Shown piece after piece: positions 49,215 through 51,772 of a stretch of 64,000 bases of DNA (its first letter is position 1; the number at the start of each line of letters is the position of its first letter). Below the pieces are notes generated by a model. The model was not told the DNA's origin, did not search any database, and was given only the letters and a program-made list of their open reading frames with translations. A program made the translations under genes and the position numbers. The DNA comes from an uncultured Clostridia bacterium. Lineage in GTDB: Bacteria; Bacillota; Clostridia; TANB77; CAG-508. The stretch is from the NCBI GenBank assembly GCA_944391865.1, contig CALXVD010000005.1:144-64143 (forward strand), in the 5' to 3' direction.

Positions 49215-49345
49215 CTTAATATTAGAGCGTGGCACGAAAACCAGTGTTGTTATAGTTGTTATTAGGATTGTTGTAATTGCGATAGGCGACAGGATAATTG
49301 TTTCCATTATTGTTGTAATTGCCACCGCGAATAACACGATACGAA
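49215..49345 (-). other. DGR template repeat (TR)
   Basis: 131 bp homologous to the 3' end of the target gene. In the target frame it reads SYRVIRGGNYNNNGNNYPVAYRNYNNPNNNYNNTGFRATL, which is rich in AAY codons. Confidence 0.85.
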
Positions 49346-49359
49346 TGCCTTTTTAAAGT

Positions 49360-50373
49360 CTATCCCTCTATATAAAACATACTTTTTCTTAAATTATAAG
49401 AATCTGCATGTTTAACATAGCCTAGCCAACCTGCTATACTTCTTTGTATTTCAGGTAATGTTATTTTTCCTTCCTTTAATTGTTTTGTATATCTTTTTAG
49501 CTTTCTTTTCATTCTGCATTTACTTGTATGCCTTATTTTTAGTCTTTTTTCATTAATCTTATATCCACAAAAATTAACTCCCTGTATATCTTTAAAAATT
49601 CTTGTTTTTGAGTTTAGAGTTAACTTTAAATTTTCTTTTAAAAATTTTGTTATATTATTTAAAATATCTTTTGCAATTTCTTTATTCTTACACATTATAA
49701 CCATATCATCCATATATCTGTAATAATATTTGCACTTTAATTTGTGTTTAACATACTGATCTAATTCATTTAAATATATATTAGCAAACATTTGAGATGT
49801 ATAATTACCTAAAGGTAGTCCTACCATGCCTTCTGTAGATAATAAAATTTCTCTAGTTAACCATAGTAACTTTTTATCCTTCATTTTTCTTTTTAATATT
49901 TCCCAAAGTATTCTTTTGTCTATATTTTGAAAATACTTTGTAACATCCATTTTTAATATGTAATAATTCTTCCATTTAGATTTTGCACTTCTCATTGCAT
50001 TTTGAACATCTTTAGATGCTTTATGCATTCCTCTTCCTTCTATTCCAGCATATGATGTCGCCATAAATTGTGGTACAAAGTATGGCTTTATAAATTTTTC
50101 GACATACCACCTATGTACTACTCTATCCTTATATTCTGATGCCATAATTATTCTTTCTTTTGGCTCATATATTTTAAATTTTGTGTAACCACCATGTTTG
50201 TACGTACCATTTTTTATTTTTTTCTCTAATTCTAATAATTCTTGTTCTAGTTTTAACTCAAACAATATTATTTTTTTCTTTTCTCTTTTTCCACATCTTG
50301 CTTTTTTATGTGCTTTTAGTAAATTTTCAAACGATACTGAATTATCATATATATTTTTAATTGTTTTAGGCAT
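49360..50373 (-). CDS. Diversity-generating retroelement reverse transcriptase
   Basis: The YMDD catalytic box and LPLGNYTSQMFANIYL (the DGR-typical [I/L]GxxxSQ motif) are present. The size is about 337 aa. Confidence 0.85.
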   Translation of the reverse strand: MPKTIKNIYDNSVSFENLLKAHKKARCGKREKKKIILFELKLEQELLELEKKIKNGTYKHGGYTKFKIYEPKERIIMASEYKDRVVHRWYVEKFIKPYFVPQFMATSYAGIEGRGMHKASKDVQNAMRSAKSKWKNYYILKMDVTKYFQNIDKRILWEILKRKMKDKKLLWLTREILLSTEGMVGLPLGNYTSQMFANIYLNELDQYVKHKLKCKYYYRYMDDMVIMCKNKEIAKDILNNITKFLKENLKLTLNSKTRIFKDIQGVNFCGYKINEKRLKIRHTSKCRMKRKLKRYTKQLKEGKITLPEIQRSIAGWLGYVKHADSYNLRKSMFYIEG

Positions 50374-50734
50374 ATTTCTTCACCTCCAGAGATTTAATAA
50401 GTCCTCCTAAAATTTTTCCGATTTCAGCTAGTAACTCGTTGCTATGTTTGTATTTCTTTTCCTCTATCCATTTTTGATTATACATGATTCTTATACAAAT
50501 TCTTTGATAATATATATTACTATCAACAATGTTATATATTGGTAATCTTTTACTCTTATCTATTTTACTTGCGAAAAGAATATTCTTCATCATTTCATAC
50601 ATACTTGTTTTTACTTCTGTTCCTATACTAAATTTTTCTGTTCTTGGAAGTTTAAGTAATATTGTAAGCATATATTCAATATATTTTTCTATTTTCACTA
50701 TTATTACAAATCTGTTATCTTTGCTTTTCTCCAT
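50366..50734 (-). CDS. DGR accessory variability determinant (Avd, four-helix-bundle family)
   Basis: LKLPRTEKFSIGTEVKTSMYEM pattern, about 120 aa, basic, overlapping the RT start. Confidence 0.7.
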   Translation of the reverse strand: MEKSKDNRFVIIVKIEKYIEYMLTILLKLPRTEKFSIGTEVKTSMYEMMKNILFASKIDKSKRLPIYNIVDSNIYYQRICIRIMYNQKWIEEKKYKHSNELLAEIGKILGGLIKSLEVKKYA

Positions 50735-50851
50735 CTTTATATCAACTCCTATTAAAAAATATATAAAAAAGAAGGAGGAACTCTGAAATTTCAAAGTTCT
50801 CTCCCTCTGTCTGTGCTTGGATACAATTAAAGAATTTTACAGTGGTCAGTG

Positions 50852-51772
50852 CTACTTAATATAAAGCGTGACACGAAAACCAGTGTCGTCATAGTTGTTA
50901 AACGGATAGTTGTTAAACGGAAGGTTGTAATAGCGATAGGCGACAGGATTACTGAATCCATAATCGCAGTAATAGCCACCACGGATAACACGATACGAAC
51001 TTTCGTTCTGTTCTTGTGTCCATTCATACACATTACCTGCAAAGTCGTAGATGTTATTAGCACACCATTCTTCTCTGCTTCCTGTTTCAACTACTTCCCT
51101 CGGAGAATTCTCTGTATTCCAATGATTGCCCCATTCAGTAGAGTCCTCTGCAATTTCGGCAAGAGTTTTAACTTCCGTTTTGATAAACCATTCCAATACC
51201 GAATCATATTCTGCACCAAAAGTCAGATGACTTTTAACTGCTTCATTGTCTTCGATAGTGGATGCAATCTTCTTGGCATCATCAAAATTGATGTTTACCC
51301 ACGGCATAACTCCTTTTACCGACTGCGGTTTTCCTGCTGAACTCTTGGAAATGTTATAACGAGAAATATAAAATCCCCCATATTTTTTGACACTTTCAAG
51401 TTGTTCAAGCAGTTCACCATTTAAAGCTTCATTGAATTCATCATCCGAAAATTCATCGTTCATGTAATTTCGTCTGCCGAATTTCTCCGAAAAATGTTCT
51501 CCATCAAGTGTTCCATTAGAGTCGAGACTTCCAACAGGAATCCATACAAACTGGCTTCCATCAGAACATCTTTCAATTACAAATCCATTGTTCCATTCTC
51601 CACAGACATGCTTATATCCTTCTGGAATTGGAGGATTTACATAGTTTGTAGAGTAGACATTGGCTGTAGCAATGTTCAGAGCTCTGATAATTAACTCTCC
51701 TCTTGTTCCCTCTGAGACTTCAAAGGTTATACCCTTTTCTGCCTCAAGCACAAATTTTTCATACCGTTTCAT
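50852..51772 (-). CDS. DGR target (variable) protein with a C-terminal FGE-sulfatase/C-type-lectin fold
   Basis: GNVYEWTQEQNESSYRVIRGGYY...TGFRVTL is a CLec-type VR scaffold. AAGGAGG lies 8 nt before the ATG, and GC content is higher than in neighbouring genes. Confidence 0.8.
   Translation of the reverse strand: MKRYEKFVLEAEKGITFEVSEGTRGELIIRALNIATANVYSTNYVNPPIPEGYKHVCGEWNNGFVIERCSDGSQFVWIPVGSLDSNGTLDGEHFSEKFGRRNYMNDEFSDDEFNEALNGELLEQLESVKKYGGFYISRYNISKSSAGKPQSVKGVMPWVNINFDDAKKIASTIEDNEAVKSHLTFGAEYDSVLEWFIKTEVKTLAEIAEDSTEWGNHWNTENSPREVVETGSREEWCANNIYDFAGNVYEWTQEQNESSYRVIRGGYYCDYGFSNPVAYRYYNLPFNNYPFNNYDDTGFRVTLYIK
50855..50999 (-). other. DGR variable repeat (VR)
   Basis: It aligns to the TR. 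In the core, 15 of 19 substitutions fall at TR adenines (T on the plus strand). VR also has a 15-bp in-frame tandem duplication (PFNNY PFNNY). Confidence 0.8.

Follow-up and report, generated by a model that had tools for sequence, protein, structure and literature searches.

The diversity-generating retroelement (DGR) of Bordetella phage BPP-1 has the order mtd-avd-TR-brt and is described by cryo-EM structures (8ub7-8ube). Its components are a reverse transcriptase (RT; here bRT), the accessory protein Avd, an AAY-rich template repeat (TR), and a variable repeat (VR) at the C-terminus of a target protein with the C-lectin (CLec) fold. In this work, we analyzed a cassette that has all of these components, including an RT of the same clade, in a stretch of 64,000 nucleotides (hereafter, the window) from contig CALXVD010000005.1 of an uncultured Clostridia bacterium (GCA_944391865.1). 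We are confident that this cassette is a structurally complete DGR with an avd-RT-TR layout. Such an order corresponds to DGR architecture B2, a known variant (Wu et al., 2018, PMC5758913), and it places the spacer RNA after the RT gene, whereas in BPP-1 the spacer RNA precedes the RT. The cassette further differs from that of BPP-1 in its RNA family (RT-14, not RT-10), in its target (an FGE-type stand-alone protein, compared with a trimeric tail-fiber tip), and in its vehicle (a mobilizable island, compared with a phage).

Two other described targets, TvpA of Treponema denticola (2Y3C) and TaqVP of Thermus aquaticus (5VF4), share with the predicted structure of the window target the FGE subtype of the C-lectin fold and the location of the variable residues at the C-terminus. 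TvpA is a lipoprotein, whereas the window target has no lipoprotein or other export signal and has a short family-specific N-terminal beta-hairpin region. DGRs are also known on integrative conjugative elements (ICEs), namely, that of Legionella pneumophila LdtA and those on Bacteroides ICEs with pilus-tip targets. The window cassette resembles these DGRs in being cargo of a chromosomally integrated and horizontally transferred element. However, its parent element has a size of ~10 kb and carries only Rep, a MOBV-type relaxase, and a serine recombinase, such that it would need a helper to transfer, and its target is without the surface-display signals of LdtA or pilins. In a limited search of the literature, we found no report of a DGR on a small relaxase-only mobilizable element.

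Cassette layout and protein components

The cassette lies on the minus strand in the order target gene, Avd gene, RT gene, and TR. An initial annotation, made from the sequence alone, had placed these features and the VR, and all of its coordinates are correct, including the start of the TR 14 nt past the RT stop codon; the translations that it quoted for the TR and the VR are exact. The features of the cassette, numbered from the first position of the window, are as follows:

50852-51772 (minus strand), target (variable protein) gene, 306 aa, an open reading frame (ORF) with a strong ribosome-binding site
50855-50999 (minus strand), VR, formed by the final 48 codons (145 nt) of the target gene, a direct repeat of the TR
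50891-50920 (minus strand), 15-bp tandem duplication within the VR; the TR has one unit (49252-49266)
50778-50799 (minus strand), hairpin with a T-run between target and avd, resembling an intrinsic terminator
50366-50734 (minus strand), gene of the accessory protein Avd, 122 aa, ending in an 8-nt overlap with the beginning of the RT gene
49360-50373 (minus strand), DGR reverse transcriptase gene, 337 aa, with YMDD and LGNYTSQ
49215-49345 (minus strand), TR, 131 nt, AAY-rich, beginning 14 nt past the RT stop codon
49069-49227 (minus strand), structured non-coding RNA (Rfam RF02921, RT-14), beginning within the 3′ end of the TR

All features of DGR membership that could be examined in this window were found, namely, the RT type, the adenine bias between TR and VR, the target fold, Avd, the fixed difference at the 3′ ends of the repeats, and the presence and structure of the flanking RNA. 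The avd, RT, TR, and RT-14 sequences are free of frameshifts, stops, and deletions. No second VR or target and no further copy of the repeat was found across the window.

In comparison with the PDB, the best match of the RT over its whole length (residues 3-329) was bRT (8ub7; E 5.8e-47), far ahead of group II intron RTs (E 8e-21) and retron RTs (E ~1e-14); the match to bRT outranks those to group II RTs by 26 orders of magnitude. The residues R74, G182, and Q187 of bRT, which contact the template and the dNTP, were aligned with identical residues in the window RT, as were the catalytic aspartates. The RT motifs are YRYMDDM, which contains YMDD, and LPLGNYTSQ, which is of the DGR type and stands in place of QGxxxSP. 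Judged by these motifs, the PDB ranking, and the family cut-offs given below, the RT belongs to the DGR clade, as the initial annotation had proposed; the ranking and the cut-offs both favor this placement over a grouping with retron or group II RTs. The Avd-like character of the neighboring protein is borne out by its match to Pfam bAvd (71.8 bits; cut-off 40). In a look-up of exact proteins, the RT was recorded on only one other contig, which is 2 kb long and without a target, and the target protein with this VR was not on record.

For the target, a CLec fold had been suggested from the sequence, and both a domain match and structural modeling agree with it. The protein matches Pfam FGE-sulfatase (28 bits; cut-off 23.3), and an AlphaFold model built with an alignment of 59 diverse homologues has a mean pLDDT of 93.2. 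The best PDB matches of this model in Foldseek were PvdO, TaqVP (5vf4), TvpA (2y3c), FGE, and EgtB; among these, TaqVP and TvpA were matched with a probability of 1.0, TM-scores of 0.41-0.47, and identities of 12-14%. According to the model, the target has the FGE-subtype C-lectin fold from about residue 40. In most clusters of cellular target proteins, a signal peptide or transmembrane domain occurs at the N-terminus at least once (Roux et al., 2021, PMC8144416), and the leaderless target found here is atypical among cellular DGRs. Its homologues are likewise without a hydrophobic N-terminal segment.

The GC content of the target gene is 38-40% (50800-51850), compared with ~25% for avd and RT (49360-50750). 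Chimeric assembly was considered as the source of this higher GC content and rejected, as the same target/avd junction is found in more than 10 independent metagenome-assembled genomes (MAGs). Among the relatives, RTs that are 77-83% identical bear quite different TRs and targets on a shared avd-RT-RT-14 backbone. The GC jump and the differing targets suggest that target/TR modules have been exchanged between backbones.

Two further observations concern the target family. Four longer homologues (P0124, P0126, P0128, and P0150; 317-334 aa) contain short N-terminal tandem duplications, e.g., NYVNPPIPEGYKHVCG is repeated; small tandem duplications seem to be common in this gene family, or else these are assembly artifacts. 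Also, the giant proteins P0241, P0246, and P0247 (3,400-6,500 aa) have ~20 matched stretches of the same FGE-like domain, and are probably surface proteins built from a repeated FGE-like scaffold.

Template and variable repeats and the RT-14 RNA

The TR and VR form a repeat with an E-value of 2e-27 within the window. In a codon-aware alignment from the TR start through CACGCT, 15 of the 20 core mismatches are located at TR adenines, which account for 31.7% of this stretch (binomial p 8.7e-5; Fisher p 1.6e-5). The earlier count by hand, 15 of 19, was essentially right, and the bias toward TR adenines holds under the proper alignment. The five non-adenine mismatches comprise two at the 5′ edge (VR 50984 and 50981), which correspond to a polymorphism that is also present in the relative loci L006 and L013, and three internal ones (VR 50950, 50918, and 50871). 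At the 3′ end, the TR carries an in-frame stop, and the VR reads through at that place.

Overall, the VR exceeds the TR by 14 nt, with a tandem duplication that adds 15 nt to the VR and one additional base in the 3′ tail of the TR. The initial annotation does not mention this duplication. The duplication consists of CCGTTTAACAACTAT present twice (50920-50906 and 50905-50891, encoding PFNNY twice) compared with a single CCTAATAACAACTAT in the TR (49266-49252). Both copies carry the same changes (A>T, A>T, and T>G), and the duplication is absent from all 120 of the closest target homologues. These identical mutated bases indicate that the duplication arose after a mutagenized cDNA had been made and that no homing event has overwritten the VR since. 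Among known DGRs, non-A changes were reported in 23%, and differences in length between TR and VR in 7%, mostly in frame and beside AAC runs (Wu et al., 2018, PMC5758913). The window indel is of this class, being in frame and next to AAC repeats. However, such indels were ascribed to RT slippage in that study, whereas the identical mutations of the two copies here point to a duplication after cDNA synthesis; RT slippage was rejected as the main origin of the 15-bp insertion on these grounds. Differences in length between VR and TR were also seen in two relatives, with a 12-nt deletion in L004 (~5400-5529) and a 2-3-nt deletion in L003 (1039-1166; two gap columns), which indicates that in-frame VR indels recur in this clade.

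Relatives of the cassette are abundant, with more than 5,000 relatives of the RT at E < 1e-20 and ~1,900 relatives of the target. A scan of loci in relatives, limited to one genome per species, found 63 loci (labeled with the prefix L), and all of the close ones are from gut MAGs assigned to uncultured Clostridia or to Clostridium, with human, mouse, and ruminant sources as judged by isolate names. The cassette belongs to a very common DGR family of gut Clostridia, which makes it a largely ordinary find of an already known kind. A comparison of the 120 closest target proteins (81-93% identical) showed hypervariation at the C-terminus precisely where the TR has AAY codons, and the residues PVAYR, P, and TGFRATLYIK between the variable positions stay fixed. 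In the 13 relative loci with both repeats, the TR and VR of the same locus differ at 11-21 adenines and 0-5 other bases; pooled over these loci, 220 of the 230 differences are at adenines. The TRs of relatives are 95-100% identical to the window TR, while the VRs differ. For L001 and L005, the TR identity is 100%, and the RT of L021 is 99% identical to that of the window. At the family level, VRs differ at the AAY codons and TRs are constant; the window VR shows post-homing drift. A difference at the 3′ end is fixed in 14 of 14 loci, with CGCTCTAATATT in the TR and CGCT-TTATATT in the VR. By analogy with described systems, this difference would correspond to that between the initiation of mutagenic homing site of the VR (IMH) and its TR counterpart (IMH*), and may give the transfer its single direction.

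Immediately after the TR, we found the structured RNA RT-14 (RF02921; 82 bits, gathering score 48.1; match over all 144 model positions), which the initial annotation does not list. Its start overlaps the last 13 nt of the TR (49227-49215), and the following helices were predicted:

49226-49220 paired with 49177-49171 (minus strand), stem P1
49208-49200 paired with 49195-49187 (minus strand), 9-bp hairpin with a 4-nt loop
49165-49160 paired with 49154-49149 (minus strand), hairpin
about 49116-49069 (minus strand), long terminal hairpin

In an RNAalifold analysis of 17 relatives, the helices match those of Rfam, together with an additional AAGGAA/UUCCUU hairpin, and 15 pairs have compensatory changes. 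The ~160 nt past the TR are conserved better than the proteins, and the RT-14 region is recognizable even where the RT is only 47-83% identical and the TRs encode different targets. Seven further Clostridia loci also have RT-14 after the TR. The viral contig L070 has the order target-avd-TR-RT-14-RT, and here too RT-14 begins within the last bases of the TR.

The motifs RT-1 to RT-19 were described as orphan motifs near RT genes; among these, RT-10 is the spacer between TR and RT in BPP-1, and other RT motifs were speculated to serve DGRs (Weinberg et al., 2017, PMC5737381). In BPP-1, the template:primer duplex consists of the TR 3′ end and spacer nucleotides 47-56, priming occurs from Sp A56, and an Avd-binding 9-bp stem with a tetraloop is found right after the TR in 207 of 278 DGRs (Handa et al., bioRxiv 10.1101/2023.10.23.563531). 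RT-14 in the window is similar to RT-10 in BPP-1 in that both directly follow the TR, whose 3′ end pairs with a strand farther downstream across an intervening 9-bp hairpin; in the window, this hairpin (49208-49187) is located between UCUAAUA (49226-49220) and the pairing UAUUAGA (49177-49171). The first fixed difference between TR and VR (C49225) falls within the predicted duplex by one base, where the TR would be left uncopied. From its structure and position, and by analogy with BPP-1, RT-14 looks like the cis-priming spacer RNA of this cassette. RT-14 had been published as an orphan motif "near RT genes," whereas here it is anchored to the TR 3′ ends of DGRs in two gene orders. A candidate long-range "stop" duplex, in which ACUUUAAAA from upstream of the TR would pair with UUUUAAGU of RT-14, was noted by eye; it is near-palindromic, and we make no claim for it.

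In the RT scan, another motif, RT-17 (RF03020), was found directly upstream of the RT in L045 (5924-6011), L049 (5900-5988), and L056 (38-131). These loci are from Dysgonomonas, Tissierellaceae, and Lachnospiraceae and have RTs that are 28-35% identical to that of the window. RT-17 is probably a candidate spacer RNA of these elements.

Parent element and its remnant in the window

In relatives, the cassette is cargo of a ~10 kb element with the order (Fic)-Rep-Mob_Pre-target-avd-RT-TR-DUF6076-toxin-antitoxin/Bro-like-recombinase. The genes include Fic (L021 and L034), an HTH_36 replication initiator, a Mob_Pre relaxase, and small toxin-antitoxin or Bro-like genes. Rep and Mob are found upstream of the target in at least 10 MAGs, and the recombinase is of two unrelated types; an intact large serine recombinase of 542-558 aa is present in L021, L005, L002, and L065. 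The combination that characterizes an integrative mobilizable element (IME), i.e., its own recombinase and relaxase without a conjugation pore, was observed in L021, L002, L005, L007, and L034. Relaxase and Rep are missing from the window, where an insertion sequence (IS) takes their place, and the recombinase is frameshifted and truncated. The window element is an immobilized remnant of an IME. Its features outside the cassette are as follows:

47907-49067 (plus strand), DUF6076 gene (Pfam), convergent with the cassette
46208-47171 (minus strand), remnant of a large serine recombinase (82 aa + 235 aa; Pfam Resolvase and Recombinase)
45755-46239 (minus strand), duplicate of the GH94 3′ end (last 485 bp of the gene), with 480 of 485 positions identical to 54549-55033
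51847-53536, ends approximate (minus strand), intact IS with a 436-aa DDE transposase (52025-53335; Pfam DDE_Tnp_1 and DUF772) and terminal repeats D4 and D5

The parent element inserts into genes in relatives, including the GH94 gene found here. In L021, the element interrupts this gene at the site that corresponds to 55032/55033 in the window. An EPSP-synthase gene seems to have been the insertion target in L005, since part of such an ORF (profile positions 132-362 of 417) comes after the recombinase there. Between L021 and the window, the elements share 95-97% identity, whereas the GH94 genes share only 75-83%, and this difference indicates horizontal transfer.

The Cys-rich DUF6076 protein is encoded next to the RT at 88-96% identity in most close relatives, and the gene is always convergent with the TR/RT-14 end in the close relatives L002, L005, L021, L065, and L067. 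Our literature search on DUF6076 returned nothing specific to this family. The window recombinase is cut after about residue 317 and lacks the zinc-ribbon domain, and the homology to L021 stops at 46238. At this end, the second GH94 copy is fused to the middle of the recombinase at the att crossover, with an attR-like junction at 46239/46240 and a left edge that corresponds to the attL/attR position of L021. Both copies of the GH94 3′ end span exactly from the crossover point of the element to the stop codon. The second copy is followed by a terminator hairpin and keeps the apparent native terminator and downstream ORF. At 55032/55033, the GH94 frame is uninterrupted with an intact-looking attB. 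One explanation for the GH94 3′ duplication is a Campbell-type homologous integration of a defective excised circle; an assembly join within a strain mixture would also explain it.

The initial annotation had described a recombinase/IS island inside a chromosomal polysaccharide-synthesis gene. A recombinase and an IS are indeed present, but they are more exactly parts of the IME remnant. Likewise, the island is flanked by the two copies of the GH94 3′ end, but the GH94 frame is continuous and the island is located just downstream of it.

The intact IS takes the place that Fic-Rep-Mob has in relatives, at a distance of 75-100 bp upstream from the start codon of the target. In L002, a DDE transposase of the same IS family (74% identical) separates Mob from the target. 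Upstream of the window target, the best promoter-like sites are at the IS-end junction (51821-51859, minus strand), with TTTGCA, an 18-nt spacer, and TATTAT with a preceding TG. The IS insertion may have changed the expression of the target.

The whole island lies between two copies of an IS with an internal deletion (44009-44803 and 53526-54459; 98-100% identical to each other). These copies have 62-84% identity to the intact IS, and each encodes only an N-terminal transposase fragment. The NdvB-like gene of ~2,750 aa, which contains a Glycoamylase domain, two GH94 supersandwich domains, and the GH94 catalytic domain, is split by a frameshift at 55257-55321 (minus strand); positions 1-259 of the Pfam model of the catalytic domain end a 2490-aa ORF, and positions 257-420 are in the next ORF of 257 aa. 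This split represents either a pseudogene or a sequencing error.

Activity, alternative accounts, and implications

Canonical mutagenic retrohoming is the best-supported account of this cassette. One transcript would carry avd, RT, and TR, followed by the RT-14 RNA, and a complex of RT and Avd would bind the TR-RT-14 RNA. Pairing of the TR 3′ end UCUAAUA with UAUUAGA would form a template:primer duplex, from which cDNA synthesis would be primed in cis, most likely from A49171 or G49172. The TR would then be copied with random misincorporation opposite adenines, and the cDNA would replace the VR at the 3′ end of the target gene, such that ~16 AAY codons would be recoded on the putative ligand-binding face of the FGE-type C-lectin protein. 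The cis-priming, the priming nucleotide, the binding of Avd to the hairpin, and the homing itself are modeled here on Bordetella phage BPP-1.

Several points weigh against this account or leave it less complete. For Avd, the match to the NCBIfam equivalog DivGenRetAVD (76.2 bits) is slightly below the cut-off of 80, and comparison with the PDB gave zero sequence-level matches. The priming nucleotide and the binding of Avd to the 9-bp hairpin are assigned by analogy with BPP-1. The terminator-like hairpin parts the target from avd; this is compatible with the model, but expression of avd-RT-TR would need its own promoter. The hairpin at 50778-50799 is predicted, looks like an intrinsic terminator, and could also be a VR-flanking hairpin. 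In the target, neither a signal peptide nor a transmembrane segment was found (maximum 15-aa hydropathy 1.09). Furthermore, the 15-bp duplication and the three internal non-adenine changes indicate that the VR has drifted after its last rewriting. On balance, we regard the cassette as intact and probably competent in this genome.

The alternative that survives best is that the cassette is a dead relic here, in which homing no longer takes place despite the intact look of the parts, and ordinary mutation now shapes the VR within a decaying mobile element. We consider this possible but doubtful. The drift of the VR fits such a relic, as does the share of non-adenine differences, which is 5/20 in the window compared with 10/230 in relatives; the loss of Rep and Mob, the damage to the recombinase, and the proximity of the IS to the target start codon are also in its favor. 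However, avd, RT, TR, and RT-14 are undamaged, and the identity of the TR with those of L001 and L005 and of the RT with that of L021 is complete or nearly so (100 and 99%). Two of the five non-adenine mismatches are the 5′-edge polymorphism shared with L006 and L013, and the reported frequencies of length differences (~7%) and non-A changes (23%) are from curated DGRs regarded as functional (PMC5758913). Also, one homing event would erase the duplication, which therefore merely dates the last such event.

A prophage DGR that switches tail-fiber specificity, as in Bordetella phage BPP-1, is very improbable. DGR RTs are common in gut phages, the RT matches PHROG 1423 (E 8.7e-121), and the short IMG/VR contig L068 has an RT that is 96% identical. 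However, structural phage genes are absent from the window flanks, in agreement with the initial annotation, and from the relatives examined, in which the neighbors are instead Rep, the Mob_Pre relaxase, Fic, DUF6076, toxin-antitoxin genes, and the serine recombinase. The 2.7-kb cassette DNA had no match among the PLSDB plasmids and INPHARED phages (50,697 phage records). The RTs of phages are at most 41% identical, and all IMG/VR matches other than L068 are at most 38% identical; this DGR clade is rare among phage sequences, with one short close IMG/VR contig. The target is a stand-alone CLec protein of 306 aa and not a tail fiber. An RT of another class (retron, group II intron, or a defense RT such as Drt or Abi) beside a coincidental repeat pair is effectively refuted: generic models do match the RT (group II, 136.6 bits; retron St85, 77 bits; Drt3a, 67 bits), and PADLOC gave only uninformative generic RT models (UG and Drt), but these scores are far under the curated cut-offs of 300, 235, and 200 for the group II, retron, and Drt families, bRT is the leading PDB match with LGNYTSQ replacing QGxxxSP, Avd adjoins the RT, intron and msr/msd structures are absent (RT-14 being the sole Rfam match in the whole window), and the repeat is highly significant and adenine-biased.

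With mutagenic retrohoming as the preferred account, a broader and speculative reading is that the DGR is the main cargo of widespread ~10 kb mobilizable elements with a serine recombinase in gut Clostridia, where it would diversify a leaderless and apparently cytoplasmic C-lectin protein for intracellular recognition by the element itself. We regard this as unlikely. If true, it would mean intracellular recognition on behalf of a mobile element, e.g., fitting the conjugation machinery of helper elements or sensing competing invaders, in contrast to the usual roles in surface adhesion or phage tropism. A more modest part of this reading is that the orphan motifs RT-14 and RT-17 may be cis-priming spacer RNAs of DGR clades.

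The find leaves the basic understanding of DGRs unchanged, and its added value is mainly in the assignment of RT-14 and the context of a mobilizable element. The window provides a well-documented member of a very large and uncharacterized DGR clade of uncultured gut Clostridia. With its placement at the TR 3′ end, RT-14 becomes a candidate that can be tested for the cis-priming role described in the Bordetella phage system. The vehicle is unusual in comparison with the phages and ICEs described in the literature consulted here, as accelerated protein evolution is spread here by small mobilizable islands that insert into genes.

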